Below, one piece after another: positions 49 to 57,453 of a DNA stretch of 64,000 bases. The translations under genes were made by a program, and so were the position numbers. The notes below the pieces were generated by a model. It was not told the origin of the DNA. It searched no databases and saw only the letters and a list, made by a program, of their open reading frames with translations. How positions within the stretch are numbered: the stretch's first letter is position 1; every line of letters starts with the position of its first letter. The DNA comes from an uncultured Gammaproteobacteria bacterium (GTDB lineage Bacteria > Patescibacteriota > Patescibacteriia > UBA11705 > DATKZF01): contig CAYPKD010000005.1 of the NCBI GenBank assembly GCA_964411255.1, positions 109,631 through 173,630 of the forward strand. The letters are read 5' to 3'.

Positions 49-738
49 TTAATCAGCATATTGGCGCAGTGATTCTTTAAAAGCAACATATGCATCTTTA
101 TGTTTTTCATATGCTGCACTATCTTGATATTTAATACCGAATACATAGTGCAAATCACTTCCGGTTCCAACCTGTTCTTTGATAGATATAAATGAACGAT
201 AGTATGAGCTGTCTTTTGCTTTTAAAGTAACCCAGCGGACTACTTTGTCACCGTATTGGTCTGTAAGTTCATTTTCTTTTTTTTCTTCTATTTTTTCACT
301 TACTAATTCTTCTGTTGGGGCAATGATTAAATAATTTTTCGGATCTCCTCTCCAAAGCGGTGAATAAATAAAAAATTCAACAGTTCCATCAGGAGAAATA
401 AAGTATGCTTCATCCGTTTGCACATATGTGTTCCCTTTATACTCAGTGGTGGGAGCGTTTGGTTTTGCAGTGAAGTTTTGGGGATATTCAATATCAAACC
501 ATGAACCTCTATAGAGTGTGACTTCAATTTGTGCAGGCTCAGCTTTTGGTGTGGTTTTGCTTTCTGAAGCTGTTTGAGTTTGAGGCTTTTCGACTTTTTG
601 ACTTTCAGGAACTGTTTGAGTTTGAAGTTCTTCGACAGCAGGTGGTAAGGAAGTGATCTGATCTTGTGTTTGGATTTGGCATCCTGTTCCGAGTATAAAA
701 AATACAGAGAGTGATGCCAGTAAAGGTAGTTTATTCAT
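49..738 (-). CDS. Hypothetical lipoprotein
   Basis: ORF with N-terminal signal peptide and lipobox-like LGTGC; Thr/Gln/Pro-rich linker; no recognisable catalytic motif. Confidence 0.5.
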   Translation of the reverse strand: MNKLPLLASLSVFFILGTGCQIQTQDQITSLPPAVEELQTQTVPESQKVEKPQTQTASESKTTPKAEPAQIEVTLYRGSWFDIEYPQNFTAKPNAPTTEYKGNTYVQTDEAYFISPDGTVEFFIYSPLWRGDPKNYLIIAPTEELVSEKIEEKKENELTDQYGDKVVRWVTLKAKDSSYYRSFISIKEQVGTGSDLHYVFGIKYQDSAAYEKHKDAYVAFKESLRQYAD

Positions 739-864
739 AGTTTTTTAGTAATATAATAAATTTTTTTTTCGTACAACGTTTGCGAGTATTTGATGTACGA
801 ATGAAGTGAGGATATGGGCGCAGGTTTCGTAAGAAACCGCAGCCAGAATGCTGTTTCCAAAAAA

Positions 865-1479
865 TTATACCACAAAAACAAGCTTATCATCTGAAATATC
901 ATCTGAAATATGACAGTCTGGGAATGCAGTTATTGTATAAAATGGGAGTTGTTTTGTTTCAACAATTTGAACAGAAATTGTTTTTGTAAAAGATGTTTCT
1001 ATTCCTGATATAGTATTTACAACAACATCATTTTCTCCGACGCACTTACTTCGGAAAACGCGCTTGATTCGTGCTTTATCTTTTTCGGAAATGTTATCTA
1101 TGAGTAAGCAATTCATTTGGCCAACAGAAAATACGTATTCAAATGTAAATGTCGTAGTTTTATATCCCGTATTGTCAACCCAATGAATTTTGTTATCCAA
1201 TATTAACTCTTGAAACTTAGATTTGATTATTTCCAGAAGCTTTTTAGGATTTTCAATACCAGCGATATTTTTTTCAAATTTAGTGCTAATTGTTTTTAAA
1301 GCATTTTCAATATCAACTTTCGAAATCTTTGAATAAAAAAATCTCTTTTGAGTAAAGTCATAGTACCAGTATGGCTGATTGATTAAAGTTTCTTTATATT
1401 GATTCTCTACAAATTTGAAGTGCCTCAAAATATGAAATTCATTTGTTGGATTGATTTCGTATTTTTTCAGCTTATTCAT
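865..1479 (-). CDS. Hypothetical protein
   Basis: 204-aa ORF preceded, on the minus strand, by a consensus promoter (TTGACC-17-TAAAAT). Confidence 0.45.
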   Translation of the reverse strand: MNKLKKYEINPTNEFHILRHFKFVENQYKETLINQPYWYYDFTQKRFFYSKISKVDIENALKTISTKFEKNIAGIENPKKLLEIIKSKFQELILDNKIHWVDNTGYKTTTFTFEYVFSVGQMNCLLIDNISEKDKARIKRVFRSKCVGENDVVVNTISGIETSFTKTISVQIVETKQLPFYTITAFPDCHISDDISDDKLVFVV

Positions 1480-1573
1480 ATTTAAGTTTATTGATATTTA
1501 TAAAATAAGAGTAATTTTTTGGAAATTGCGAATAACTGATTTCTATGCAAAATATTTTGATTTTGCAATGCAA

Positions 1574-2382: not shown

Positions 2383-4635
2383 TTATTCTTTTTCATCTTT
2401 TTTTTCTTTTTCCGCCTTACCAGTATAAGTACACTCTTTATTTGAACATCTGACCGTTCCTTTTGGCCCCAGCACTAGCTGTGATTCACAGTCTGGGCAT
2501 TTTTTATTAACTGGCTTTGACCAAAAGACCTGTTTGCAGTCTGGATAGCTCGAGCAGCCATAAAAAGTCCTGCCTTTTTTAGATTTTCTTTCTATAATGT
2601 CGCCCTTTTTACAGTCTGGACATTTTACCCCGGTCTTTATTAATATTGACTTAATAGTTTTGCATTCAGGATATTTGCTGCAGCCTAAAAATTTTCCATA
2701 CCGGCCGTGCTTGACCTGCATTGGCGCGCCGCATTTTTCACATTTTTCTTTTGTTAATTCCGGTTCTTCAGTTTCAATCTTCCCATCTTTGCCATCAGTC
2801 GAAACAATATTTTTTGTGTTTTTACAATCAGGATAATTTGAACAGGCAAGGAATTTTCCAAATCTTCCCAGTTTAATCACCATTGGCGATTTGCATTTTT
2901 CGCAAATCTCTTCTGTCTTTTCTTCAGTAAGATCCTTCTTTTGAATTTCTTTTTCTTTTTTTTCTAAATTCTTTTTAAATGGCGTATAAAAATCATCAAT
3001 AAGCGGCTGCCATTTCATTTTGCCTTCGGCAATTTTATCTAAGTCTTCCTCCATATGGGCGGTGAAATCATAATCAACAATTTTTGGGAAATGTTCTACT
3101 AAAAGATCATTGACCAAAAAGGCGATGTCTGTTGGTTTTAATTTTTTTTCTTCTTTGTCCACGTAATTTCTATCCTGTATGGTAGAAATTGTTGGTGCAT
3201 AAGTTGAAGGCCGGCCAATACCGCGCTCTTCTAAAGCTTTAACCAATGTTGCTTCACTATATCTGGCTGGCGGCTGGGTGAAATGCTGGATTGGCTCAAT
3301 CTTTTTTGCATCTACTTTATCTTTTTCTTTTAGCTCTGGTAGAATTGTTTCTTTCGTATCAGTTGAATAAACTTTTTGCCAGCCTAAAAATTTAATTTGT
3401 ACGCCATTAGCCCGGAAAGAATATTTATTTTTTTCATCTTCAATGTCCACTGCTGTCTGGTTCAGTTTGACATCTGACATTTGACTGGCTAAAGAGCGTT
3501 CCCAAATTAATTTATAAAGTTTATATTGATTGTTATTTAAAAATGATTTAATTGATTCTGGAGTTCTGTCAGCCTGAGTAGGACGGATAGCTTCATGAGC
3601 TTCTTGGGCGCCTTTTGTTTTTTTATATATCTTGTCTTGTAGCCCAAGATATTCTTTTCCATATTCTTTTTCAATAAAGTTTTTGGCTCCGCTTTTAAAT
3701 TCTTTTGATAAATTTAAAGAGTCAGTTCTCATGTAAGTAATTAAACCAGTAGATCCTTCTGATCCCAATTCAATACCTTCATAAAGCTGCTGAGCAAGCA
3801 TCATGGTTTGTTTGGCTGAAAAATATAATTTTCTGTTTGATTCTTGCTGCAGAGTTGATGTTTTAAATGGAGTAGGGGCTTTCTTTGATGATTCCTTAAG
3901 TTCTACTTTTGCTATTTTATAATTTTGTTTTTGAAGAGTATCTAAAAGTTTGTTTGCCTGTTTTTCATCTTTGATCTCAAGTTTTTTCAAAGTCTTTTGA
4001 TCGATTTTATGCAACTTAGCCTCAAATTCATTTTTTTCTTTTCCAAAGACAGCTTCAATTGTCCAATATTCATCCTGTTTAAAAGCTTTAATCTCCCGTT
4101 CGCGTTCAACAATTAATCTAACCGCTACCGATTGTACCCGGCCAGCTGATAAGCCTCTGGCCACTTTTTTCCAAAGAAAAGGAGACATTTCATAACCTAC
4201 TAATCTGTCTAAAATTCTTCTTGCCTGCTGAGCATCAACTAAACTAAGATCAATTTCTCTCGGACTTTTTATAGCATTTTCAATTGCTGCTTTGGTAATT
4301 TCATGAAAGGTAATTCTTTTTGACTTTTCTTTTTTAGGTTTTAAAATGTGTTCCAAATGCCAGGCAATGGCTTCGCCTTCACGATCTTCATCAGTTGCGA
4401 AATAGATGACATCTGATTTTTTTGCAGCATCTTTCAGCGCAGTTACGGTTTTTTTAGCCTTTGGCGGAATAACATATTTGGGCTCATAATTTTTCTCAGT
4501 GTCAACTCCCATTTTAGTTTTGGGTAGATCACGGATATGACCAAAAGACGACTGAATGTTATATTCAGCTTTTGGCAAAAATTTTGATATAGTTTTTGCT
4601 TTTGTCGGTGACTCGACTATTACTAAATTTTTCAT
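2383..4635 (-). CDS. topA: DNA topoisomerase I
   Basis: N-terminal TOPRIM (MKNLVIVESPTKAKTI...FATDEDREGE), topoisomerase IA core (catalytic Tyr region ITYMRTDS), multiple C-terminal C4 zinc ribbons (CxxC...CxxC repeated). Confidence 0.95.
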   Translation of the reverse strand: MKNLVIVESPTKAKTISKFLPKAEYNIQSSFGHIRDLPKTKMGVDTEKNYEPKYVIPPKAKKTVTALKDAAKKSDVIYFATDEDREGEAIAWHLEHILKPKKEKSKRITFHEITKAAIENAIKSPREIDLSLVDAQQARRILDRLVGYEMSPFLWKKVARGLSAGRVQSVAVRLIVEREREIKAFKQDEYWTIEAVFGKEKNEFEAKLHKIDQKTLKKLEIKDEKQANKLLDTLQKQNYKIAKVELKESSKKAPTPFKTSTLQQESNRKLYFSAKQTMMLAQQLYEGIELGSEGSTGLITYMRTDSLNLSKEFKSGAKNFIEKEYGKEYLGLQDKIYKKTKGAQEAHEAIRPTQADRTPESIKSFLNNNQYKLYKLIWERSLASQMSDVKLNQTAVDIEDEKNKYSFRANGVQIKFLGWQKVYSTDTKETILPELKEKDKVDAKKIEPIQHFTQPPARYSEATLVKALEERGIGRPSTYAPTISTIQDRNYVDKEEKKLKPTDIAFLVNDLLVEHFPKIVDYDFTAHMEEDLDKIAEGKMKWQPLIDDFYTPFKKNLEKKEKEIQKKDLTEEKTEEICEKCKSPMVIKLGRFGKFLACSNYPDCKNTKNIVSTDGKDGKIETEEPELTKEKCEKCGAPMQVKHGRYGKFLGCSKYPECKTIKSILIKTGVKCPDCKKGDIIERKSKKGRTFYGCSSYPDCKQVFWSKPVNKKCPDCESQLVLGPKGTVRCSNKECTYTGKAEKEKKDEKE

Positions 4636-4760: not shown

Positions 4761-4986
4761 TGTTGATAAATGGGCTACGAATCTATCAATATTCTACAAA
4801 ATTTACGAAAATAAAGTTTTGATAGATACGAATCAAATACAAATTCTATACTATATTTGTATTGTAAAAGTTAGCTTTCGTAGGATTTGTAATATGATTC
4901 GTAGTTTTGTAGTTAATATTGAAAAATTTGAGAATAATGCTAAGCTTTTATCAGAATCCCAGAACAGAAACAGGAGGTGAATGATA

Positions 4987-5757
4987 ATGGGTGAATTAAA
5001 TCCAGAAAAATTTTGGGAAGCTCTTTTCCAATCTGGCCAGGCCCCAGGCGATATATGTGCTATGATTCAAAGTTCAGGATATGACTTGAAATTTATTCGT
5101 GCATTGAAAAAATTCCATATTACGTTTCATCGATTGCGAATAATAAAAAAATTTGTACCCAGGTTTGTAGAATCGGTTGAGAAAAAGTTTTTTGAACAGG
5201 AATTTTCTAATGATCAATTACGATTTATTGCTGAAAACTATCCTGAGTTCAGATATACGGCTTTGCATAGACTTTCAGAACAAAATCCTTCAAAACAAGA
5301 TATGAAATGTCTTTTGCATTACCGGGAGTTTTATAAACTTGATCAAATGGTTGAAAATGTCTTAAAAAATAATCCGACAACTTCAGTTCTTTGTGATATA
5401 TTTATGTATTATCATGAAGCACAGGATAAAATATGGGAAATGTTTAAAGAACGGGGTTTGAATAAATCTATCTTATGTATTGTTATTGCAACATCATTAA
5501 ATAAAGAAATTTTAAGGGAAGCCTTGCAATTATTGTTAGAGGCAGGAATGACTAAAAGGGATTTGTATTTAATGTCGCAATTTAAACTGCTGAGTGCATT
5601 TGAAATAATTAAATTGTTAGTTGAAATGGGATATGAAGAAGAAGATTTTGTAAGAATGTTTGGTCCATTAAGAGAAAGAAAGCCTTATTTAACAGCGATA
5701 AGAGAAGATCCAAAAAATTGGGAATATTATTTATTTATGGAGGTCATAGGAAGCTAA
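4987..5757 (+). CDS. Hypothetical cytoplasmic protein
   Basis: ORF preceded by strong SD AGGAGGTGA; ATG at 4987 has better spacing than the ORF-track start at 4981; no family recognised. Confidence 0.5.
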   Translation: MGELNPEKFWEALFQSGQAPGDICAMIQSSGYDLKFIRALKKFHITFHRLRIIKKFVPRFVESVEKKFFEQEFSNDQLRFIAENYPEFRYTALHRLSEQNPSKQDMKCLLHYREFYKLDQMVENVLKNNPTTSVLCDIFMYYHEAQDKIWEMFKERGLNKSILCIVIATSLNKEILREALQLLLEAGMTKRDLYLMSQFKLLSAFEIIKLLVEMGYEEEDFVRMFGPLRERKPYLTAIREDPKNWEYYLFMEVIGS

Positions 5758-7114: not shown

Positions 7115-8209
7115 CTAACTTTTTACGTAATTTTGGTTTCCTAGATTCTTAATCATGCCCTTCATCTCCATTATAATCAGATTTGAATTAATTTCAGAAG
7201 GGGATAAATTTGTCAGCTTTACGATTTTATCAATATGTTTTGGATCAGAATTTAAAATTTCAATGATTTTTTTCTCAATAGGAGAAGACGGTAGTACCTT
7301 TTTATTTTCAGAATATTCTTCAATTTTTTCAATATTTAATTCTTCGAAAATATCCTCGACTGTACAGACAGGTTTTGCACCCTGCTTGATTAAATTATTT
7401 GTACCCTTGCTGGTTTCTACCTGAATTGGTCCTGGAATGGCAAATACTTCTCGGTTCTGCTCCAATGCGTACTTGGCAGTGATTAAGGCGCCTGAGCTTT
7501 CTCCAGCTTCAATCACTAATGTGCCAAGGCTTAAGCCAGAAATAATTCTGTTTCGAGTAGGGAAGTGATGTTTCATTGGAATTGTATTGATGGGATATTC
7601 AGAAATTAAAAGTCCTTCCTGATCCAATATTTTATCAGCCAAATATCTGTTTGAGGTAGGATAAATATTTGCTTTGTCCAGACTTGATCCTAGGACAGCA
7701 ATGGTTTTGCCATTATAGTTTAAGGCATTAGAATGGGCCAGAGTATCTATTCCCAAAGCAAGGCCGCTAACTATTGTTAAATTGTGTTTGACTAAAGGTT
7801 TGATGATTTCAGGTAGAACCTGTTTACCATAATTAGAATATTTGCGGGTGCCGACCACGGCAATTGAATTTGACCTGAGTAAATCAATATTGCCACGGTA
7901 GAAAAGTATTGCCGGTGAATTAAAGGATTGATTTAGAATCTCCGGATAGTTTTTATCTTGATAAACTAAAATATTCAGCTTTTCTTTTTGAAAAAGTTCT
8001 AATTCTTTGTCTGGTGAAATTGATTTGCGTTTAATATCAAACTCTTCTGCGATTTTTTGATCCAGGCCAGCCTCAATCAATTCTGAAATGTGCGCATTGA
8101 ATGCTTCTTTTGAAGTAGGGAAGTAATTTAAAAGTTTTTTAAGCCTGGTAGCCCCGATTTTTGGATATCTGAGAATTGCTAATAGGTATTTGAGCTCATT
8201 TGTTTGCAT
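7115..8209 (-). CDS. dprA: DNA processing protein DprA (Smf)
   Basis: Rossmann-like DprA core (AVVGTRKYS...IVSGLALGIDTLAHSNAL...VLGSSLD) plus C-terminal winged-helix-like tail. Confidence 0.9.
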   Translation of the reverse strand: MQTNELKYLLAILRYPKIGATRLKKLLNYFPTSKEAFNAHISELIEAGLDQKIAEEFDIKRKSISPDKELELFQKEKLNILVYQDKNYPEILNQSFNSPAILFYRGNIDLLRSNSIAVVGTRKYSNYGKQVLPEIIKPLVKHNLTIVSGLALGIDTLAHSNALNYNGKTIAVLGSSLDKANIYPTSNRYLADKILDQEGLLISEYPINTIPMKHHFPTRNRIISGLSLGTLVIEAGESSGALITAKYALEQNREVFAIPGPIQVETSKGTNNLIKQGAKPVCTVEDIFEELNIEKIEEYSENKKVLPSSPIEKKIIEILNSDPKHIDKIVKLTNLSPSEINSNLIIMEMKGMIKNLGNQNYVKS

Positions 8210-8320
8210 ATTATATTAAGATATCATATATAAAAGTTAAAAGTCAAAAAGCAAAAGGTAGAAATTTGGAGTCCCTGACGGGACGTTTATATATATTTCA
8301 GAAAAGTTAAAAGTAAATAT

Positions 8321-8470
8321 TTGCCTAAAGAAAAGAAATGATTTAAAATATAGATAGATATAGTTCATCATCCATACAGTACTCAACTGTCTGGAAATGC
8401 CTGCTCTTTCCCTGCCCCCATCCCCGTCATGCGCCCATTAGATAATCTCTAGTGGGCGTCCCTTTTTTTA
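8321..8470 (+). ncRNA. Candidate small RNA A (promoter TTGCCT-17-TAAAAT; C-rich body; intrinsic terminator at 8431-8470)
   Basis: Promoter at 8321-8349; hairpin cgccca/tgggcg followed by a T7 run; no ORF; higher local GC than the flanks. Confidence 0.3.
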
Positions 8471-8542
8471 AGTAAAAAGCAAAATTAAAAAGTAAAAATA
8501 TAGAGTCCCAAATGGGACATTTATTTATAAAATGTGTACTAT

Positions 8543-8823
8543 TGACAAGGCTTTGTTATTGTGATATAATATAATTGCTTGGTTCCAAAGACGCTCTGGT
8601 TGTAAAAGCCGAGCAAAAAGGTTTAAACCCAGTTTCTCAGACCCATTTCCGCAAGGAGGTGATGCCATGATTGTGTCTACTTCGTTCGCATCGTGACCGA
8701 GTGCCAGGTACTGGACCTCAGCATGTGCTTATTCAAGCACAAGCAGATTCCTTCAAAAATCCTCAGTAAAAACCTACCATAAAAATAGACCTGTTAGTTC
8801 ATTGCTAGCAGGTCTTGTCTTTT
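8543..8823 (+). ncRNA. Candidate structured ncRNA 1 (about 245 nt), family not identified
   Basis: Consensus promoter TTGACA-16-TGaTATAAT (8543-8570). GC-rich body with multiple hairpins. Terminator agacctg...caggtct plus T-run at 8787-8823. A-rich UP-like element and a gagtccc/gggac hairpin lie upstream. Confidence 0.35.
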
Positions 8824-8992
8824 AAAAAAAGTAAAAAGCAAAATGCAAAAAGTAAAAATAAAGGAGGCTTTCCAAATATTTTGACTTTTTGAAATTTTCT
8901 GTATAAACTATATACGCTAAGAAAAATTGAAATAAAAAAACATCTAATTTTAGCTAAAAAAAAATACGGAAATTCAGAAAAGCCTGAAAATA

Positions 8993-9213
8993 TTGACAAA
9001 AAATTGTTTATGTGATATAATGGAATATTCTGGAGTATAAATTAGGGGGCTTATTTTAGGCAATATGCCCACAATTTTGCTTATCGGCCAGGTCAATGAA
9101 TGCAGCCCCTCCTCTGCAGTCTAGTGCCTGTGTTGGTAAGCAATATTGTGGATGGTATTGCCTCCACAGTTGAATCCCTAATGCCCTCTGGTATCTAGGG
9201 ATTCATTCTTTTT
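8993..9213 (+). ncRNA. Candidate structured ncRNA 2 (about 185 nt), family not identified (6S-like size; possible cis-leader of the downstream gene)
   Basis: Consensus promoter TTGACA-17-TGtgaTATAAT (8993-9021). GC-rich body includes a CCAGGTCA...GCAGCC segment and a CCCCUCCU loop. Terminator gaatcccta...tagggattc plus T-run at 9172-9213. Confidence 0.35.
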
Positions 9214-9258
9214 GGAAGTAATTCGATCTAATATATTTCAAGAACAAGGAGAGAGACG

Positions 9259-9654
9259 ATGAGATTTTTTCTGCCAGCCTTGTTGACAGCTTTGAGCTGT
9301 CTGGCAGGTGCAGGATGCCATGTGCATTCAGCGCCATTGGTTCTCGAGGACCGGCCCGCAGTCTATGTGCGGCCGTACTATCGGCACGGGTATTACAATG
9401 ACAGGTATTATTACCGTCATTACCCTCGCTACCATCACACCACATATGTGCGGCCACATCGGACTGTTGTCCGATCAACGATCGTTCATCGACGACGACC
9501 AGTGGCGGTCGTGCATCGGCCGAGGACTGTAGTCCATCGAAAGGTGGTAGTCAAAAAGAACCGGCCGAGGCCGAAATATCACAAGCCTCGCCCAAGATCT
9601 GGCAAGCCTCGCGGCGTGACCTATCGGGGCAGAGGGCGTCGGACACGACGCTGA
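9259..9654 (+). CDS. Highly basic Arg/Tyr/His/Val-rich secreted (lipo)protein, GC-rich gene
   Basis: SD AAGGAGAGAG; signal peptide MRFFLPALLTALSCLAGAGC; repetitive YYRH/HRRRP composition; local GC well above the genome background. Confidence 0.5.
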   Translation: MRFFLPALLTALSCLAGAGCHVHSAPLVLEDRPAVYVRPYYRHGYYNDRYYYRHYPRYHHTTYVRPHRTVVRSTIVHRRRPVAVVHRPRTVVHRKVVVKKNRPRPKYHKPRPRSGKPRGVTYRGRGRRTRR

Positions 9655-9660
9655 AAAAAA

Positions 9661-9700
9661 AGAGCGCTGATGAAAATTCTTCAGCGCTCTTAAATTTTAA
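9661..9700. terminator. Bidirectional hairpin terminator (agagcgctga...tcagcgctct)
   Basis: 10-bp stem flanked by an A-run (5') and a T-rich tract (3'); on the minus strand it is followed by T8. Confidence 0.5.
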
Positions 9701-10005: not shown

Positions 10006-10545
10006 TTATATAAAAGTTAGAATCTCTTCAATTGCCAGCTCAATAATTTTTTTTAATTTCTTTTTTTCTAAAATCGTGAAATTCCGTAAAACAAAACTTG
10101 TGACATCGCCCATTTTTTTTCTTTCTGGTCTGGCAATGCCAATCCGAAGTCTCCAAAAATCTTTTGAGCCCAATTGATTTATAATTGAATCAATACCTCT
10201 ATGGCCAGCTGATGATTTTTCTCTTTGCAATTTGTATTTGCCAAGTAAAATATCAATATCATCGTGGATTACCAGTAAATTTTTTAAATCAATTTTATAA
10301 TATTCAGCCAGCTTGCTTACTGTTTCACCAGATTTGTTCATAAAAGTCTGAGGTTTAGCTAAAATGATTGTTTGGTCGTTGATTTTTGCTTTTGAAATCC
10401 TGCTCTGGCTTTTTTTATCATCTTTCCAATTTGAAAAGTCTGCTTCTTTTTTTTGAAGCTTATCCAAAGTCATAAAGCCAACATTGTGTCTGGTGTTTTT
10501 ATATACTGTTCCTGGATTTCCCAGACCGATTATTAATTTAGTCAT
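10006..10545 (-). CDS. pth: Peptidyl-tRNA hydrolase
   Basis: MTKLIIGLGNPG...TRHNVGF signature N-terminus of Pth. Confidence 0.95.
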   Translation of the reverse strand: MTKLIIGLGNPGTVYKNTRHNVGFMTLDKLQKKEADFSNWKDDKKSQSRISKAKINDQTIILAKPQTFMNKSGETVSKLAEYYKIDLKNLLVIHDDIDILLGKYKLQREKSSAGHRGIDSIINQLGSKDFWRLRIGIARPERKKMGDVTSFVLRNFTILEKKKLKKIIELAIEEILTFI

Positions 10546-16525: not shown

Positions 16526-16736
16526 AAAAACGGCCTAAGGGCCGTTTTTTTAAAAGCAAAAAGTAAAAAGGAAAAAGCAAAAAATACCCTGAGGATAACT
16601 TAGGCTATTTTTTTTGAATAAATGTCAAAAATATTGTAAAATATGTATTAAGAAGGCATAAGATGGCTTAAGGGGGCAAAGGAGACATAGAGGTAAAGAA
16701 GGCTTCTCCAATGATCAATATTTTTATATATTGAAA

Positions 16737-18716: not shown

Positions 18717-21700
18717 ATGAATTGGTTTAAGAAAAATAAAAAGTTATTGCTAGGGTTATTAATAATAGCTGGTGTTTTTGTTTGTCTTAATTTTGCGTTA
18801 GCACAAGATACAGGTTTAGAAACAGTAGGCGAAGAAGCTGGTATTGAAACAGATGAGGATATTAGAGTACTTATTGCCAGGATTATTCGAATTGTATTTG
18901 GATTTTTAGGCGTGATTGCTTTACTTTTAGTATTGTACGGCGGTTTTGTCTGGATGACAGCTGGCGGTGATCCAGAAAAAGTAAATAAGGCAAAAAAGAT
19001 TTTAATTAATGCCTTTATTGGATTGGCAATAATGCTTTTAGCGTTTTCAATTACTTCGTTTATTATTTCAAGATTGCAGGAAGCAGTTTTAGGTCCTCCA
19101 TCTGAGTTTGAGGACGGTGATGGTTTTGACGGCGATGGCGGTATTCCTTCCGGAGCTTTTAAGGTAAAAAGTATTCAGCCAGTTGGTGCTTTGCCAATTT
19201 ATAATGTGGTAGTAAAAGCATCGTTTAATCAAAAGCTTGACCAGGAAATGGACGATGAATTACTGCAGAATAATTTTGAAGTTTATGATGTGGCAGATGA
19301 TCGGCTTGTATCAGGCAATGTGGTTATCAATAATTACACTTTAAGGTTTACTCCAAACCAGCCATGCCCTGAACCAAATGAGGATTTATTTTGTTTTGAT
19401 AAATTAAAAACGTACAGAGTGACGTTAAAAAGCGGAATCAGAGATGAAACCGGTGATAATCTGTTCTGCGGTCTGGGTAGTGTTTGTTCAGTAGAATTTA
19501 GAACCGGTGAATTAATTGATACTCAAGAGCCATCAGCATATATTACTTCTCCATACAATAATGAAAAGATTTGCAATGAATTTTTTGATGCAATTGCTGA
19601 TGTTGATGATGACAGCGCAATATCAATTGTAAATTTTTATTTAGATGATCAAAATATTGGAACAGCAGCTCCTCCTTCAGACGAGATTGTATCTTCATTT
19701 ACTGCTTTATTAAATTTTGAAGTTCCTTTGGCTGAAGAAGGTCCGCATACTATATATGTTGAAGCTGAAGATATTGATAATAACATGACTCAGTCAAATT
19801 CAAAGACATTTATTGTGCCAATAGCCCATTGCTGCAATGAAGTACAGGATTCTGATGAGACAGGAATAGACTGCGGTGGAGTAGATTGCGGATCATGTAT
19901 GGGAGAACCCTGTGACACTGATGATGACTGCGCTGACGGATTTTGTAGTGATGGAGTCTGCGTCAGCTATCCGACGATTACCAGTTTATCTCATACAGAA
20001 GGAGCGGCTGGAAATCTAATAACAATTTGGGGATCTGGGTTTGGAGGTTATGTAGAGGGACAGAGTAAATTAGAATTTACTGGTCCTGGTGGTACATTAG
20101 TTGAAGGAGGCATTGGATGTGACCCGGCAAGTAGCTGGACAAAAAGTCAGGTAGTGGTAAAAGTGCCTGATGATGCAGTGACCGGTCCATTAAAAATTAC
20201 TAATGCAGCTGGATTTTGGGACGATACTATTAATGATCGAGGCTGGCAGGGAGAGTTTATTTTAAATCCTGATCTTTCTTGGCCAGGTCTTTGTAATGTG
20301 GTAAATGCTGAGGGTGTAAATGAAGGAGAGTTTGAACAGATTGTAACAGCCAATGGAGAAAATTTTAACACTGCCCAGGGAAGAATTTTATTTGGAGAAT
20401 TTGAAGCTCCAATTACTGGTACTTGGTCTGACACTACTGTTACAGGCATTTCCTTGCCAAACATAGTACCAGGCCGGACATTAGTAAATGTAGAGTTAGC
20501 AGCAGAGCAACTAAGCAACCCTGTAGAATTTTATATATTATCAACTGAAAAGCTACCAAATATAGAACAAGTAATCCCAGATAATGGTGGCATAGGTCAA
20601 TATGTAGAATTAATCGGTACTAATTTTGGCAATTCACCAATTCCAGTTTTCTTTTTAAATGAAACTCTGGAAGGCGGTCAAATGATAGCAGATACAGTAT
20701 TTCCAGAAGGTTGCTCTGACAGCTATTGGTCTGATTCAAAAGTAATTATAAAAGTTCCTCCTGGGATTTCTCTGGGGCAATTTTTAATTCAAATGAAATC
20801 TGAAAATGTGGAAAGTAATCAAATGCCGTTTACAGTAACAGACGCACCTCCTGGTCCTGGAATTTGCGGGCTTGATCCTGATAATGGACCAGTCGGTACC
20901 TTTGTTGATGTTTTGGGAGAAGGTTTTGACATAAATGGAACAATACAGTTTTCAGAAAATCAGCCTGGCACAATTTCTGAAGCTTTAGATACTCTTATTC
21001 AAACAAGAGTGCCAGCTTTGGCTGTGTCTGGCCCAGTTCAATATTCTAATGAAGAGGGCGTTAGCAGTAATACACTGAATTTTAATGTTGGCGCTTGTAC
21101 GCCTGAATCCTGCCAGGAGAAATCTATTTTAGAAGGAGAAATATTTGAATGCTGTACCACAGGCGTTTGTCAGCCAGAAGGTGAGTGTGAAGACGTAGTG
21201 GGAGCTGGCGACGCGGAATATGTATGGATGTTCAGCACTGGCAAGCTACCGATCGTGCCAAAAGTAATTGAAGATCCTACTTGCGCTGACAATATTCAGT
21301 CACCATCTCCATGGATTGATTCTGAAGATGCCTGCACCAATGCTTTGATTGGCGCTAGATTTAATATTGATGTTCAAATGGCTAATATGCCATCAAAGAT
21401 AAAAGTTGCCAGATGTAATAATCAAAATGAAGAATGTTCATTTGTAAACTGCCAAAGTATTGATTCAGACTGTTTTGAAGAAACAGTAACCACTCTAAAA
21501 ACTGCTGGTACAGAAAATAATGGATTTTTAAGCAATTATTTTGTGGTTAGTTCATTAAGCGGTAGTCCTTCTCTTCTGCCAAATAGGTGGTATCAGGTTA
21601 CGATTTTAGGTGGTGACAATGGAGTTAAAGGTTATAATAATGTGGCCATGCCTCAGGATTATGTTTGGCGATTTAAAACAAAAGAAACACCGTGTGAAAT

Positions 21701-24700
21701 TGCAGATGTTATTGTTGAACCATCACCAGGGCAGATCGATGAATTTGAAGGCACTGAACTGTTTAATGTATTTGGCAAGGCAGAAAATTGTAATATTTTA
21801 GATGCTGGACTTTTTGACTGGGACTGGCAGCTGACAAATGAAGCAGATAAAGCAAGTCTTCAAACAATAACATATACTGATACAATTAATGTCACTAATG
21901 AACAAGGAGAAGAAGAACAGCAGGAAATTGTCAGAAATGACCAGGCAGAAGCAACTGGCCTTGGAGAAACTGATGATGAAAATCCAGTAGTAGTTGACGC
22001 TGCTACAACAAGCGAAGAAACTGGTGTTACTCAATCAGATGATGCAGAGCTTTTTATTGACTTTACAGATCCTCGGGTGATTGATTATGGTCCAGAATGC
22101 GATACAGCCTGTATTAATGCTGAAATTTGGGCAACTTTTAATACGAAAATGGATGAAAGCACAATGATAATACCAAATCTTCGCGGAAATTTGGAAAATA
22201 TTTTTATATATAAATGTAGCGGTCAAAATTGTTTGGGATTAACCTCAGTAACAGCTAATTTTTTTGGTACTTACCAGGAGGCAACAAAAACAATAAAAAT
22301 TAATATACATGAAGATTCAATTTTTGATTATTTAGAGCCGAATACTTATTATCGAGTTTTAATAAAAGATGATGTCCAGAGCCAAAGCGGCATAAATTTA
22401 ACAGGTCTTAATTTTGATCATGATAATGACGGGTTTAATGATTCTTTTTCCTGGATATTTAGGACCAAAAACGATGATACGCCTTGCGACATGGATAGAG
22501 CTGAAGTATTACCACCTGTTTATGAAACCTCCACTCCGCTTGAGCAATTAAAATATTTAGTTAATGCCCGCGGCGCTCCAGACGAGTGCAATCCGAACGG
22601 ACAGCTGTTAAATCCGTTTGATTTTAACTGGTCTTGGGACAGTACCAAAACTACAGTAGCGGAAATTACCAGTGAAAATATAAGCACTGAATTCCCAGCG
22701 GATACTTGTTCAGCTGAATGCTTGAATTTAGGAAGCAGTGTGATTGAATCAATTTGTGGCAATGGCGGATCACCTGATTATGCAGAGGAATGCGACGATG
22801 GCAATTCAAATGATGGCGATGGCTGCAGCTCAAGATGTTTATTTGAGCCAGTGGCTGATATCAATGAGGGCGGCACTTGCGGCAACGGACAGCTGGATAC
22901 ATTTGAAGAATGCGATTATGCAATTACTGAAGATGCAGATATATGCACTCCTGGATGCCAATTAGCAGGTTCATCAATTAGCGGCTATGATTGCGGTAAT
23001 AATAATGTTGACCCAGGAGAAGATTGTGATGATGGGAATAATTCAGCTGGCGATGGATGTTCCAAAGAATGTTTATGGGAAGGTAGTGATTATACATTTG
23101 ATCAAATACAACAAATTTCTATCTGTGGTAATAATCAAGTAGAAGCTGGAGAAGACTGTGACGATGGTGATTTTGAATCCGGTGATGGCTGTTCTTCAAA
23201 ATGTCTTGCAGAAGGCAGCCAGGCTATTTGCGGCAATGGCGGTGATCCAGAAGTGGGAGAAAATTGCGATGATGGCAATACTGAAGACGGCGACGGTTGC
23301 TCAAGCGTTTGTTTAAATGAAGGTTCAGATTGGGCCTATGGTTCATTCTGCGGTAATGGAATTGAAGAGACTGGCGAAAGCTGCGAAGCAGAAGGCGGAG
23401 ACTATTTTGGATCACCAGAGCAGCTGGTAACAATGACTGAATCTTTACCAGCAGGTACAAATGAAGATACTACAAATATTATCGCTCAGGCAGAAAATTT
23501 TGCTGGTGAAACGAAAGAAGGGACAGGAAATTTAACATTTATCCAGCCTTTTTGTGTAAGTATTGACCCATCATTTACAGAATTACCAGAACCAGGCTCA
23601 ACAGATGTTTGTCGAAATACAGCGATTCAAATAATTGTAAATCAGCCAGTTCAGCAATCAGGCATTAATGAAGCGATAACCCTGGAAGGACCTTGCTCTG
23701 CAGTAGAACAGCCTGAAGCCAGGGTTCCAAATGAATTAAGGCCTATTAAGTGGATTAAAAAAATAGTAAGGAGAATAAAGCAAGTTTTTTCTCCGTCAGC
23801 CAATGCATTTGGGTTGGTGTTTGACTGCACAATAGAAATAGATAAAATAAATGTGGTGGAAAATGATGATCAGACAACCATAACTGTATTTCCAAAGGAT
23901 TTACTTCCGCCATCTGTTTCTATTAGAGTAGATTATTCTGGCCTTAAAAATTTATGCGGAGAATATTTTGGCATAAATAATTTTATCTTTACAACCGGAC
24001 CAGAAGAAAAGATTTGTTTGGTTGATTTTGTCAATGTAAATCCTCCTGATAAATTTATCACTGAAGCAGATTATCAGCAGACGTATCAGGCTGAGGCAAA
24101 GAGTAATGATGCCAGTGCTCCGCTTAATCCGATTCCTGGATTTTATAGCTGGTCATGGTCTTGGAATTTAGAAAGTAATGATTTAGATATACCAGACGAT
24201 ATTCAAATAATTTCATTATCAACTATGGGACCAGAAGGAGAGGAGATTATTCCTGATCAGAAATTATTGGAAACCGGAGGAGCTAATGGTCAGGGTGATA
24301 TGATTGCCACCGCCAGCATTGAAGAAAGCGAATTTGGAGATATAGGAAATGACATTGTTGGCAAAGGTCACTTTACAATTTTTATTTGTGAAAATCCGTG
24401 GTCAGAAACGATGGAAGACGAATTCGCACGTATGCAATGGATATATGATGGTTGGTGGAAGAACTTTGCATTTAATTTTAAGACTTTATATTGCCGTGAT
24501 TATGGTGATCCTGATAAAACTTCAGATGATTTGCCAAATTTAAAGGTTATCAAAGCACCTGAACCAGAGTTTGCGGCAAGTCCTTGGGATGAACCAGATC
24601 CTGTAGTCATAAAAGAATATTTTTTACTTAGAGATGATAATTCACCAGACGCGATTGCGCTTCGGGTTTATACTAATAAAGAAGGTGTTAGCCCAGGACT

Positions 24701-25487
24701 TTGGTATGATTTGCATGTTCCAAATCCGGGCCAGTATGGTGAGTTGAATGTGGATTGCCTGGCGCAAAATGGTGACTTGTATTGCTACCGTGGCATTCAA
24801 GACGGACGAACCGTATATATTTCCGCATCAAATATGCCTGATGCTGGAGTAGATGTGGAATGTGAAGAATCTGATGGAGGGGATTTTGAATGTCTGTCAA
24901 GGTCTCCAAGTGCGTTTTATAATAATATTTTTGTCTTTTCATACAGTGAAAATGCAGATACTCAAACTTTAGAGATGTATAATCAATTATTAAATAATTT
25001 ACGATTTAATATAAATATTCCAGATACTTTGCCAGAAGATAAATTAAGCATTATTCGAGATACGCAAAGAATACATGACATGGTGTATATTCGAGGATTA
25101 GTTAATAGCTATTTTGATCAAAACGGCCGTGTACCTCTCCTCAATACCGATGGTTCATTTATTCCTGGCACATATGTAGGTGGACAGGCAGTAAGCACCT
25201 GGCCTTCATGGGATATAGTGTTTGGTAATATGCTGGGTACTACGATCTTGCCAAAGGATCCACTCAATGATTTTGGACCGCAATGTGCTGCTAATAATTT
25301 TGATGCAGACACCTGCTATAATTCAGAAACCGAACAATTTTTTAATGATTACAGTAAAAAGAAAGCATATGTTTATGATTATAAAATAGCTGAAGGCGGA
25401 TATTTAATATATTTAAATTTAGAAAATGACTTTGAAGCTATGTTCCCGTCTATTTGTACTGATTTAACGGGCGTTGTTTGCAATTAA
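18717..25487 (+). CDS. Giant surface protein (2256 aa) with N-terminal SP plus two-TM module and Cys-rich repeats
   Basis: N-terminus paralogous to the 16804-ORF (WMTAGGDPEKVNKAKK). Seven tandem CGNG...E.CDDGN...DGDGCS..C repeats (Myxococcus-type cysteine-rich repeat) at about 22740-23400. An additional CCNEVQD...CGGVDCGSC module. Confidence 0.8.
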   Translation: MNWFKKNKKLLLGLLIIAGVFVCLNFALAQDTGLETVGEEAGIETDEDIRVLIARIIRIVFGFLGVIALLLVLYGGFVWMTAGGDPEKVNKAKKILINAFIGLAIMLLAFSITSFIISRLQEAVLGPPSEFEDGDGFDGDGGIPSGAFKVKSIQPVGALPIYNVVVKASFNQKLDQEMDDELLQNNFEVYDVADDRLVSGNVVINNYTLRFTPNQPCPEPNEDLFCFDKLKTYRVTLKSGIRDETGDNLFCGLGSVCSVEFRTGELIDTQEPSAYITSPYNNEKICNEFFDAIADVDDDSAISIVNFYLDDQNIGTAAPPSDEIVSSFTALLNFEVPLAEEGPHTIYVEAEDIDNNMTQSNSKTFIVPIAHCCNEVQDSDETGIDCGGVDCGSCMGEPCDTDDDCADGFCSDGVCVSYPTITSLSHTEGAAGNLITIWGSGFGGYVEGQSKLEFTGPGGTLVEGGIGCDPASSWTKSQVVVKVPDDAVTGPLKITNAAGFWDDTINDRGWQGEFILNPDLSWPGLCNVVNAEGVNEGEFEQIVTANGENFNTAQGRILFGEFEAPITGTWSDTTVTGISLPNIVPGRTLVNVELAAEQLSNPVEFYILSTEKLPNIEQVIPDNGGIGQYVELIGTNFGNSPIPVFFLNETLEGGQMIADTVFPEGCSDSYWSDSKVIIKVPPGISLGQFLIQMKSENVESNQMPFTVTDAPPGPGICGLDPDNGPVGTFVDVLGEGFDINGTIQFSENQPGTISEALDTLIQTRVPALAVSGPVQYSNEEGVSSNTLNFNVGACTPESCQEKSILEGEIFECCTTGVCQPEGECEDVVGAGDAEYVWMFSTGKLPIVPKVIEDPTCADNIQSPSPWIDSEDACTNALIGARFNIDVQMANMPSKIKVARCNNQNEECSFVNCQSIDSDCFEETVTTLKTAGTENNGFLSNYFVVSSLSGSPSLLPNRWYQVTILGGDNGVKGYNNVAMPQDYVWRFKTKETPCEIADVIVEPSPGQIDEFEGTELFNVFGKAENCNILDAGLFDWDWQLTNEADKASLQTITYTDTINVTNEQGEEEQQEIVRNDQAEATGLGETDDENPVVVDAATTSEETGVTQSDDAELFIDFTDPRVIDYGPECDTACINAEIWATFNTKMDESTMIIPNLRGNLENIFIYKCSGQNCLGLTSVTANFFGTYQEATKTIKINIHEDSIFDYLEPNTYYRVLIKDDVQSQSGINLTGLNFDHDNDGFNDSFSWIFRTKNDDTPCDMDRAEVLPPVYETSTPLEQLKYLVNARGAPDECNPNGQLLNPFDFNWSWDSTKTTVAEITSENISTEFPADTCSAECLNLGSSVIESICGNGGSPDYAEECDDGNSNDGDGCSSRCLFEPVADINEGGTCGNGQLDTFEECDYAITEDADICTPGCQLAGSSISGYDCGNNNVDPGEDCDDGNNSAGDGCSKECLWEGSDYTFDQIQQISICGNNQVEAGEDCDDGDFESGDGCSSKCLAEGSQAICGNGGDPEVGENCDDGNTEDGDGCSSVCLNEGSDWAYGSFCGNGIEETGESCEAEGGDYFGSPEQLVTMTESLPAGTNEDTTNIIAQAENFAGETKEGTGNLTFIQPFCVSIDPSFTELPEPGSTDVCRNTAIQIIVNQPVQQSGINEAITLEGPCSAVEQPEARVPNELRPIKWIKKIVRRIKQVFSPSANAFGLVFDCTIEIDKINVVENDDQTTITVFPKDLLPPSVSIRVDYSGLKNLCGEYFGINNFIFTTGPEEKICLVDFVNVNPPDKFITEADYQQTYQAEAKSNDASAPLNPIPGFYSWSWSWNLESNDLDIPDDIQIISLSTMGPEGEEIIPDQKLLETGGANGQGDMIATASIEESEFGDIGNDIVGKGHFTIFICENPWSETMEDEFARMQWIYDGWWKNFAFNFKTLYCRDYGDPDKTSDDLPNLKVIKAPEPEFAASPWDEPDPVVIKEYFLLRDDNSPDAIALRVYTNKEGVSPGLWYDLHVPNPGQYGELNVDCLAQNGDLYCYRGIQDGRTVYISASNMPDAGVDVECEESDGGDFECLSRSPSAFYNNIFVFSYSENADTQTLEMYNQLLNNLRFNINIPDTLPEDKLSIIRDTQRIHDMVYIRGLVNSYFDQNGRVPLLNTDGSFIPGTYVGGQAVSTWPSWDIVFGNMLGTTILPKDPLNDFGPQCAANNFDADTCYNSETEQFFNDYSKKKAYVYDYKIAEGGYLIYLNLENDFEAMFPSICTDLTGVVCN

Positions 25488-56742: not shown

Positions 56743-57453
56743 TTATTGTTTTTCATAAATATATTCTGAGATCACGGATGACCCACTTGTTGATTGCGTG
56801 AGGTGTATAGTAATGTCACCATGGTTTATTTCAGAAAATAAATTGCGTCCATATGAATCAGTCCAGTCAACGATATACTTATCACCGACCTTTTTGATTG
56901 GAATTCCCAGCTCTGCAGGATAGAATCCTAGCAGAACAGCTTCGTAGTCAGAAAAATACTGATCAAAATTTTCTGAAGGAGCAGCAACGTAGACAGTCAC
57001 TTCCCTGGGTCCAGAGGAGCTTGAATCAGTTCTGGCCCAGTCTCCTTCAATAAATTTCAGCTCTTCGACTATGTTGTTGTCAGCGTGTAGAATGATCGGA
57101 TCCAGCTCTGTGTTTTCATTTACGCACAACAGGCTTTCCCAATCATGATACCCTTGAAGCGTGACTGCAATATCATAGCAGCCCTCTGTAACTTCTACAT
57201 TTCCTGGCGTGGTAGCGCCTGTGCTTTTACCATCCACCCAGATCTGGGCGTTTTCAGGTGAGCTGGCCACAGTGACCGTGTACTTGTCCACGGGCGTGGT
57301 CTGGTCTGGCAGCAGAGTGCTGTCTGGGCCAGGGCCAATGTCAGGGTTGACAGTGCTGTCTGGGCCAGGGCCTGTCCCACCAGAATCAGAATCGCAGCTG
57401 AGAGTGCCAAAAGAAAGGATGAAAATGCTGAAAATGGTTACGAAATACTTCAT
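56743..57453 (-). CDS. Lipoprotein with PEGA domain, relatively GC-rich
   Basis: Signal peptide plus lipobox LSC; Gly/Pro repeats GTGPGPDSTVNPDIGPGPDST; PEGA-like segment YTVTVASSPENAQIWVDGKSTGATTPGNVEVTEGCYDIAVTLQGY. Confidence 0.6.
   Translation of the reverse strand: MKYFVTIFSIFILSFGTLSCDSDSGGTGPGPDSTVNPDIGPGPDSTLLPDQTTPVDKYTVTVASSPENAQIWVDGKSTGATTPGNVEVTEGCYDIAVTLQGYHDWESLLCVNENTELDPIILHADNNIVEELKFIEGDWARTDSSSSGPREVTVYVAAPSENFDQYFSDYEAVLLGFYPAELGIPIKKVGDKYIVDWTDSYGRNLFSEINHGDITIHLTQSTSGSSVISEYIYEKQ

Follow-up and report, generated by a model that had tools for sequence, protein, structure and literature searches.

What occupies the gap of about 1 kb that separates dprA from a lipoprotein gene and pth in the genome of an uncultured bacterium from Patescibacteria (the candidate phyla radiation, CPR)? 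We addressed this question for a stretch of 64,000 nt with a GC content of 0.36, referred to below as the window. An earlier note had claimed three promoter-to-terminator units in the gap, and this claim was borne out by a promoter scan, by the sites of hairpins followed by T-runs, by folding and by the contrast in GC content. The gap is an RNA island, the units of which span positions 8321-9213. The three transcription units in it are independent of one another: a sigma-70-type promoter and an intrinsic terminator belong to each, and no unit is protein-coding. Judged from the sequence, from which transcription itself is predicted, all three are most likely genes for non-coding RNAs. The whole explanation developed here combines three small RNA (sRNA) genes, the membership of unit 3 in a wider family of hairpins termed type B, and the pairing of exposed C-rich sequences with Shine-Dalgarno (SD) sequences; we give it a probability of about 0.5.

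For comparison, relatives were collected via homologs of DprA and their contigs. The respective DprA proteins are 89% (locus L041), 73% (L043), 69% (L044 and L046), 68% (L001), and 62% (L047) identical to that of the window. L001, a metagenome-assembled genome (MAG) named "Patescibacteria group bacterium", is the nearest species-level relative in the genome collection, and MAGs of Falkowbacteria have DprA identities of 53-54%. The identical sequence was also found on a 389-kb ENA metagenome contig. As a neutral yardstick we used four flanking genes, the four-fold degenerate sites of which are 52-67% identical between the window and L041, i.e. about 60%.

Units 2 and 3 have the stronger promoters. 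The earlier note had described two perfect TTGACA promoters with extended −10 regions, and both are indeed 12 of 12 matches with the TG extension. In the entire 64 kb, no site outside these two units fits the pattern TTGACA-N14-TGnTATAAT, even if one mismatch is tolerated; the expected number is 0.07, and two matches were seen in none of 100 shuffles. The promoter of unit 1 is weaker according to the promoter scan (Table 1). The claimed terminators, i.e. hairpins followed by T-runs, are present at the ends of all three units. For unit 3 the hairpin at 9172-9204 is followed by TTCTTTTT, and the scan caught its inner part, 9186-9200.

The bodies between promoters and terminators are GC-rich and free of open reading frames (ORFs), as had been stated: their GC content is 0.44-0.47, versus 0.22-0.24 in the spacers and 0.36 in the window, and they contain no credible ORF, only short ones of up to 64 aa. 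Folding was compared with that of dinucleotide shuffles, and the minimum free energies have z values of −4.8, −4.4, and −5.6 for units 1, 2, and 3, respectively. In comparison with L041, the bodies of the three units are 82%, 84%, and 95% identical, whereas the repeat-bearing spacers are 39% identical and contain large indels. The mismatches to L041 are distributed over the three codon positions as 4/7/4 in unit 1 and 14/12/13 in unit 2, showing no three-base periodicity. Degenerate gene remnants had been named as an outcome that would speak against RNA genes; tblastn with six-frame pieces of the units found no protein similarity, and the idea was rejected. An antisense ORF of 47 aa (8668..8525) is open in L041, but it is only about 70% identical at the amino acid level (hand count), versus 84% at the nucleotide level, and lacks periodicity. 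An amino acid identity below the nucleotide identity is the reverse of what is found for real genes here, and this candidate was also discarded. The region has no blastn match among phage and plasmid records; the sole pattern match in a viral contig was a chance match in coding DNA, and a phage or plasmid origin was rejected. The three units cannot be aligned with one another. Identities of the bodies above the neutral level, together with the absence of a coding signature, imply that all three units are selected non-coding elements.

Unit 3 provides the strongest case. Its homologs in L041, L044, L001, and L047 were found by blastn with the core, and L054 and L049 were added by a pattern scan of metagenomes, which yielded these two new true homologs and two chance matches. 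The hairpin is thus kept in six further lineages. In the alignment of the seven sequences it has 33 pairs, 97% of the cells are standard pairs, and eight pairs show double changes, compared with zero to two in slid controls. The check for covariation among homologs, which the earlier note had proposed, therefore gave a strong signal for this hairpin. A covariance model of it, R1, scores 102.9 bits on the plus strand versus 32.3 bits on the minus strand; this difference and the conserved G-U pairs assign the RNA to the plus strand. No variation is seen in AUUUUGCUUAUCGGCC, in the loop region CAGCCCCUCCUCUG, or in UAAGCAA, and the inner stem is invariant as well (UUGCUUAUCGG / UUGRUAAGCAA). The 3′ hairpin, with the consensus GAAUCCCYR...YRGGGAUUC, shows compensatory changes from CCCUA/UAGGG to CCCCG/CGGGG in L001, L054, and L049. 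A peptide reading (MPTILLIGQVNECSPSSAV) was tried and rejected: in L044 and L047, 1-nt indels disrupt the 19-codon ORF within the hairpin, and these frameshifts argue for conservation at the RNA level. The interpretation of the units as structured non-coding RNA genes is supported by covariation for unit 3, and for units 1 and 2 by conservation well above the neutral level without a coding signature.

The hairpin is not confined to the close relatives of the window. R1 also matches, more weakly, sequences in L010, L025, L006, L017, L004, L011, and L009, which lie just upstream of dprA and are divergent from it, L014 being the exception; with the filters switched off, L005, L008, and L007 are added. 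The members of this family, termed type B, share a basal stem with a UUGCYUA/UARGCAA core and a loop that bears CCCUCC. The stem has about 25-30 bp, and the C-rich loop is unpaired in every fold. In an alignment of 12 sequences, 14 of the 22 basal pairs have double (compensatory) changes. A small second hairpin is often present, and in the three-way variant 8 of 33 pairs are compensatory. The stretch 9062-9158 of the window has the stem core found by R1 and an unpaired CCCUCC-type loop on the strand of promoter and terminator. It is located upstream of and divergent from dprA and convergent with pth, and the order is the same in relatives. Unit 3 is therefore very probably a type-B member. In five of the relatives (L004, L006, L008, L017, and L007) a −10 box precedes the hairpin by 15-20 nt, an intrinsic terminator follows directly, and then comes the convergent pth, without a same-strand gene downstream of the hairpin. 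This tight layout is that of a compact stand-alone sRNA gene, the form that the hairpin takes in most relatives.

A second hairpin, type A, adjoins dprA in several relatives (Table 1) and often occurs there in tandem with type B. The stem at its base reads ACUACUUGCU/AGCAAGUAGU and its loop UUCCUCCUUGG; 18 of the 36 pairs are compensatory. The window contains no type-A hairpin: the model R2 gives only a 20-bit match, on unit 3 itself, and the idea that units 1 and 2 are type-A hairpins in a degenerate form was rejected for the same reason. The hairpin family is missing from many other Patescibacteria loci with enough flanking sequence and is thus not universal. The type-B hairpin did not turn up in literature searches and is absent from Rfam 15, and literature searches for sRNAs or 6S RNA of Patescibacteria/CPR, a radiation that is uncultured and has reduced genomes, found no described regulatory RNA. 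The result is a covariation-supported RNA family new to Rfam 15, with a fixed address between dprA and pth and with two paralogous types in relatives. Should the RNAs prove to be ordinary antisense sRNAs, they would represent a useful annotation and a candidate Rfam family, not a new principle.

Units 1 and 2 are lineage-specific sRNAs. A homolog of unit 1 beyond L041 was not found with nhmmer, and unit 2 has no Rfam or tblastn match and no nhmmer match beyond L041. The C-rich stretch of unit 1 is identical in L041 from 8403 to 8424, the first difference being at 8425. The 39 mismatches between the two copies of unit 2 break none of its 58 predicted pairs, and three pairs are compensatory, including a change from U-A to C-G in the terminator. 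We also considered whether units 1 and 2 are homologous to promoter-to-terminator units of L001, L044, L046, and L047, and rejected this because MAFFT and nhmmer revealed only similar YUGYCUUUU terminator tails. These four loci have units of their own between dprA and the type-B hairpin, all on the minus strand (L001 at about 3775-3935, L044 at about 3310-3460, L046 at about 200-355, and L047 at about 3710-3920). They are mutually unalignable, but each contains stretches rich in pyrimidines and a terminator whose end reads YUGYCUUUU. The pattern suggests that small RNA genes at the dprA locus turn over rapidly. In L043, the minus strand upstream of dprA (about 3560-3780) carries two tandem GC-rich elements of about 90 nt (GAGUCGGGG...CCCCUCCACWAAUC), followed by a terminator; this is a candidate for another structured RNA with a C-rich motif at the same genomic position.

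What might these RNAs do? In the proposed mechanism, their exposed C-rich sequences, which are complementary to GGAGG, would pair with G-rich, SD-like sequences of mRNAs and would thereby block the access of ribosomes to the targets. The lipoprotein mRNA would be a candidate target, in cis or in trans, and the rarity of SD-like sequences could make the pairing selective. We propose this mechanism tentatively, at somewhat worse than even odds, trans action and targets being inferred. The loop motif, CCCCUCCU in the window, makes the idea testable. As to the rarity, 6 of the 37 ORFs in the window of at least 120 aa have GGAG, GAGG or AGGA at positions −20 to −4, compared with a background of 0.09. 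A clear SD was recognized by eye in four genes, i.e. the ORF 4981-5757, the lipoprotein gene 9259-9654, a PEGA-domain gene at 56743-57453 (minus strand), and a Peptidase_C39-like gene at 58638-60944. The host genome looks largely SD-independent in initiation. An anti-SD-like RNA in a mostly SD-independent host raises the question of how the few SD-led genes are controlled.

C-rich sRNAs with the motif UCCC or CCCC are established in Firmicutes, where they bind SD regions, as exemplified by the Rsa RNAs, which act without Hfq (PMC2790875). RsaE/RoxS, the other Rsa RNAs and the hairpins of RNAIII (PMC2790875) share with the units described here that they are stand-alone genes with a promoter and an intrinsic terminator of their own and have conserved, unpaired, SD-complementary C-rich motifs in hairpin loops or in single strands beside the terminator. 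The features of this class, i.e. an own promoter, an intrinsic terminator and an exposed, conserved C-rich motif, are found here, the pairing being predicted only. The CPR hairpin has no sequence or covariance-model similarity to RsaE, for which no match was obtained at E≤10. It also differs from the C-rich sRNAs of Firmicutes in having a much longer, near-perfect stem, an invariant core and a single loop, and in its host, which barely uses SD sequences. A second comparison is with LhrC of Listeria, a group of clustered multicopy sRNAs that respond when the cell envelope is under stress and that have the adhesin LapB as a regulated target (PMC4132741). As in LhrC, several promoter-to-terminator sRNA genes lie in one intergenic region, each exposing C-rich motifs. 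In the window, the adjacent gene as well as the few SD-led genes encode envelope or secreted proteins (lipoprotein, PEGA, C39-like). The LhrC copies are paralogs, whereas units 1-3 are unalignable.

Several points weigh against this explanation. The start sites, ends and abundance of all three RNAs are predicted. Units 1 and 2 rest on only two related genomes, and covariation is weak for both: unit 1 has no compensatory pair, and for unit 2, with its three, two sequences are too few for structural confidence. Target duplexes predicted on 37 start regions are not distinctive, the best lying about 1.7-2.3 standard deviations from the mean, and any C-rich loop will seem to match an SD. SD use in relatives could not be estimated reliably, since control loci from outside the CPR gave an implausible 0 of 32. 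A long, near-perfect and invariant stem is unusual for sRNAs that act by seed pairing; it suggests a protein partner or processing by RNase III. Finally, in the six lineages of the window clade whose sequences extend to it, a gene for a basic, Arg/Tyr/His-rich secreted protein or lipoprotein comes directly after the RNA, with no intervening promoter seen, which leads to the alternative that fares best.

According to this alternative, unit 3 is purely a cis-regulatory 5′ leader of the lipoprotein gene, i.e. a riboswitch-like, protein-binding or self-sequestering attenuator, in which the 3′ hairpin with its U-run is a conditional terminator and the G-rich motif, the C-rich loop and the SD of the gene pair alternatively. 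The gene product of the window has no Pfam domain. A similar gene follows the unit 3 homolog in L041, L044, L001, L047, and L054 (e.g. L001 3355-3002 on the minus strand and L054 821-1266); the sequences barely align, the composition is kept, and the version of L044 has long Arg/Ser repeats. The terminator behind the lipoprotein gene (GAGCGCTG...CAGCGCTC, 9661-9690) is conserved. No promoter was seen on reading the 45 nt between the unit 3 hairpin and the ATG, and transcription of the gene probably starts at the unit 3 promoter and reads through. Of the seven homologs, four have a clear U-run behind the 3′ hairpin and L049 has a weak one; L001 and L047 lack it, and there the RNA must read through. 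This partial presence indicates that a short RNA and a read-through mRNA are probably both produced from unit 3.

As far as they are covered, the members of the window clade share one layout: a strong promoter, a 5′ segment of 30-70 nt with a G-rich motif, the hairpin of about 97 nt, the 3′ hairpin, an SD, and the gene. The G-rich motif (GGGAG/GGAGG), complementary to the loop, is found in all of them and is no feature of the wider family, and in L047 the last hairpin overlaps the SD; both facts favor a leader. The predicted duplex between 5′ motif and loop is better than that of most shuffles, the fractions that were at least as good being 0.03, 0.05, 0.00, 0.003, 0.10, and 0.22. The complementarity suggests self-masking or a switch tied to the downstream SD. 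One class of gene lies downstream in the window clade but not in the wider family, and alternative pairings are possible. On the other hand, the stand-alone hairpins described above, with their own terminators and a convergent pth, indicate that the function of the hairpin needs no downstream gene. The structure is also a simple rod that has neither a junction nor conserved internal loops of the kind that form ligand pockets.

The roles of leader and sRNA can coexist. Leader-derived sRNAs exist, e.g. SreA and SreB of Listeria, which stem from riboswitches or attenuators. Unit 3 resembles them in having a strong promoter, a structured leader, a terminator-like hairpin, and, probably, a short RNA next to a read-through mRNA, and differs by the lack of a ligand-type architecture. 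The ancestral form, seen in relatives, is a stand-alone sRNA, so that the role as a leader appears to be secondary. A purely cis-acting leader is unlikely. In the clade of the window, the type-B hairpin gained the G-rich 5′ segment and the 3′ hairpin and became the leader of the lipoprotein gene in addition; the family thus shows an sRNA gene that was recruited as the leader of a newly inserted gene.

Next, the type-B hairpin might be the RNA subunit or decoy of a protein complex, i.e. an unrecognized ribonucleoprotein RNA with a housekeeping function in CPR bacteria, such as a divergent RNA of the 6S or signal recognition particle (SRP) type, or a mimic of the 16S rRNA 3′ tail that titrates the protein binding to it. 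The fixed synteny and wide spread among relatives, the very strong promoter, and a helix sequence that is invariant beyond the needs of pairing (UUGCYUA/UARGCAA) would fit such a role, and standard models might miss the housekeeping RNAs of CPR bacteria, which is an assumption. The identities proposed by the earlier note on the basis of size, 6S and SRP RNA, are not supported by any Rfam match or defining motif. The note itself had verified no consensus by eye. In our comparison with Rfam 15, the gathering score was not reached by any family anywhere in the window, and in 18 related loci it was reached by two tRNAs only. The E-value mode, applied at E≤10 to 8150-9320 and also to six related loci, yielded nothing but noise, e.g. 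CRISPR-DR66 at E 0.36 and models of miRNAs and snoRNAs. ARAGORN and Rfam found neither tRNA nor tmRNA in the window. The SRP RNA model RF00169 matched neither at the gathering score in the window, nor at E≤10 on 8150-9320, nor in relatives.

Unit 3 shares the size range, the rod-like fold and the strong promoter with SRP and 6S RNA, as well as, by chance, a CCAGGUCA...GCAGCC string. This segment and its loop had been assigned to the second RNA, but they are located in unit 3 (9088-9117). The SRP reading was rejected: the string reads CCCCGAGCCA in L047 and is absent from the wider family, and instead of the GNRA-capped helix 8 with symmetric and asymmetric loops of small SRP RNA (...AGGUCAGG...GGAAGCAGCC), the apex is the C-rich loop of 8 nt, without a GNRA tetraloop. 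6S RNA (RF00013) forms a rod, about 180 nt in length, in which a large bubble at the center mimics an open promoter; it was rejected because there is no Rfam match, the consensus hairpin has no such bubble but internal loops of only 1-4 nt and a core of 95-135 nt, and unit 2 is multi-branched. The absence of matches even at E≤1-10, the patchy distribution of the family and the tandem arrangement of two paralogous types in some genomes further argue against a housekeeping ribonucleoprotein RNA, and we consider it distinctly improbable.

The tail-mimic version deserves a comment, because the anti-SD at the 3′ end of 16S rRNA reads ...CACCUCCUUA. The loops CCCCUCCU (window), CACCCUCCU (L009), UUCCUCCUUGG (type A), and ACCUCCUCCUCCUU (L011) all hold CCUCC, and some match its flanks as well. 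In contrast to the free 3′ end of the rRNA, the CPR sequence is placed in a closed hairpin loop, and the link to the ribosome is one of resemblance only. It is conceivable, with rather poor odds, that type-A and type-B hairpins mimic the anti-SD tail and, in a lineage that has largely given up SD-led initiation, are a dedicated switch for SD-dependent translation via the capture of the few strong SDs or, alternatively, that they titrate a protein recognizing the 16S 3′ tail. The captured SDs would be those of the genes for envelope and secreted proteins, the lipoprotein mRNA and the unit 2 RNA. Judged from the GC content of the lipoprotein ORF, these SD-led genes were possibly acquired horizontally.

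The SD of unit 2 precedes a mini-ORF of nine codons, so that unit 2 could be a small mRNA, with MIVSTSFAS as a micropeptide or as a leader peptide that controls the terminator at 8787-8823. The SD is a perfect match of 11 nt and is located 7 nt (from GGAGG) before the ATG, in a genome in which SDs are rare. In L041 the ORF reads MVVSTSFAS*, i.e. with one conservative I-to-V change, SD, ATG and stop are intact, and this is the best-conserved part of unit 2. However, the ORF comprises 30 of about 250 conserved nt, and the SD is predicted to be paired in a hairpin. Eight downstream codons have no synonymous change despite the identity of about 60% at four-fold sites, which points to a constraint at the RNA level. 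For an attenuator, the only downstream partner would be unit 3, and that has its own promoter. A small mRNA is highly unlikely.

It is extremely unlikely, and for unit 3 largely refuted, that the units are no functional RNAs at all but gene remnants, DNA-level elements or chance look-alikes of promoters and terminators in AT-rich spacers: promoter-like hexamers are common in AT-rich DNA (19 sites found versus 11.6 expected) and units 1 and 2 are confined to one lineage, but the perfect extended promoters occur nowhere else in the 64 kb, the bodies are kept like coding DNA while the neighboring spacers decay, compensatory changes and strand-specific G-U pairs are present, and neither coding periodicity nor protein similarity was found.

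Table 1. Positions of the features discussed (window coordinates unless a locus is named).
Feature	Position	Strand	Basis or comment
dprA	7115-8209	-	flanks the RNA island on the left
A-rich heptad repeats (AAAAGYA)n	8232-8263, 8468-8497, 8827-8857		direct repeats
A-rich repeats with GAGTCCCTGACGGGAC hairpin	8232-8300; copy 2, 8468-8529		A-rich repeat alone at 8827-8857
Unit 1 promoter	8321-8349	+	TTGCCT-17-TAAAAT, 9/12; place and both hexamers kept in L041 (TTGCCA...TAAAAT), 83% identity
Unit 1 RNA body, about 110 nt	8356-8470	+	
Unit 1 5′ hairpin	8371-8395	+	predicted fold
Unit 1 unpaired C-rich stretch GCUCUUUCCCUGCCCCCAUCCCCGUC	8403-8428	+	adjoins terminator
Unit 1 terminator	8431-8459, then TTTTTTT	+	hairpin/T-run scan
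Unit 2 promoter	8542-8570	+	perfect TTGACA-17-TATAAT with TG extension
Unit 2 RNA body, about 250 nt	8577-8825	+	
Unit 2 multi-hairpin domain, multi-branched (predicted)	closed by 8577-8582/8733-8738	+	fold
Unit 2 SD, perfect 11 nt, AAGGAGGUGAU	8653-8663	+	read directly
Unit 2 mini-ORF, 9 codons, MIVSTSFAS* (candidate)	8667-8696	+	read directly
Unit 2 unstructured A-rich tail with UCCUUC, UCCUCA	8746-8786	+	predicted fold
Unit 2 terminator	8787-8815, then TGTCTTTT (RNA UGUCUUUU)	+	hairpin/T-run scan
Unit 3 promoter	8993-9021	+	perfect TTGACA-17-TATAAT with TG; strong promoter at the same place in the six homologs covering this stretch
Unit 3 RNA	9028-9213	+	strongest case of the three
Unit 3 5′ segment with G-rich AGGGGGC (9044-9050)	9028-9061	+	motif complementary to apical loop
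Unit 3 long hairpin, 97 nt, type-B core	9062-9158	+	covariation, model R1
Unit 3 apical loop, 8 nt, CCCCUCCU	9106-9113	+	invariant in 7 sequences
Unit 3 3′ hairpin GAAUCCCUA...UAGGGAUUC, then UUCUUUUU	9172-9213	+	terminator or attenuator
Lipoprotein gene, 131 aa	9259-9654	+	lipobox LAGAGC, SD AAGGAGAG; GC 0.56; very basic, Arg/Tyr/His/Pro-rich
pth	10006-10545	-	past the lipoprotein gene, with der, also on the minus strand
Type-A hairpins in relatives	L003 168-256, L005 1016-1105, L010 3777-3865, L011 3837-3925, L024 3752-3841, L025 3771-3859	- (of the locus)	model R2

The earlier note had taken the A-rich repeats for UP-like promoter elements, but they lie 75-110 nt upstream of the start sites and directly behind the preceding terminators. 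The same repeat is found behind the terminator of the gene for a YqeY-like protein (16552-16585, within the region 16530-16585), and in L041 the A-rich repeats are absent or replaced, (GTAATGA)n standing at the corresponding position. The repeats may belong to terminator regions or be slippage-prone simple DNA. A repeated gagtccc/gggac hairpin had also been noted; two copies indeed exist, but they are part of a local duplication of about 60 bp (8234-8295 and 8470-8529, 76% identity) that is absent from L041. The A-rich repeats and the GAGTCCC hairpins are fast-evolving post-terminator spacer repeats outside the RNAs. In L046 (about 95-176, minus strand), the window motif TTGGAGTCCCTG recurs and is followed by a GC-rich palindrome, CCTGCCTGCCGCCTGCCTGCCGGTAGGCAGGGCAGGCAGG, and the GAGTCCC hairpin may accordingly be what is left of a small element that is repeated or mobile.

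The AT-rich stretch 8877-8992, which precedes the unit 3 promoter, has an identity of about 90% to L041, which far exceeds the neutral level. Another promoter-like site lies within it at 8881-8909 (TTGACT-17-TAAACT), and a similar TTGACA is found upstream in L044; the stretch may have a regulatory role or provide a second start site. In L049, a 407-aa ORF (279-1502, minus strand) that is transposase- or integrase-like by eye alone lies directly upstream of the promoter of the unit 3 homolog and replaces the dprA side of the locus.

On the dprA side of the island, the 20 nt upstream of the dprA start codon (8210-8232, ATTATATTAAGATATCATAT) hardly differ between the window, L041, and L046, and L043 has a similar sequence. 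TATAAT abuts the ATG (dprA start at 8209, ...cttaatataatATG) and no SD sequence is present, and the dprA transcript may have no leader or only a very short one. Elsewhere in the window, two giant ORFs lie on the plus strand, at 18717-25487 (2256 aa) and 47060-56692 (3210 aa).

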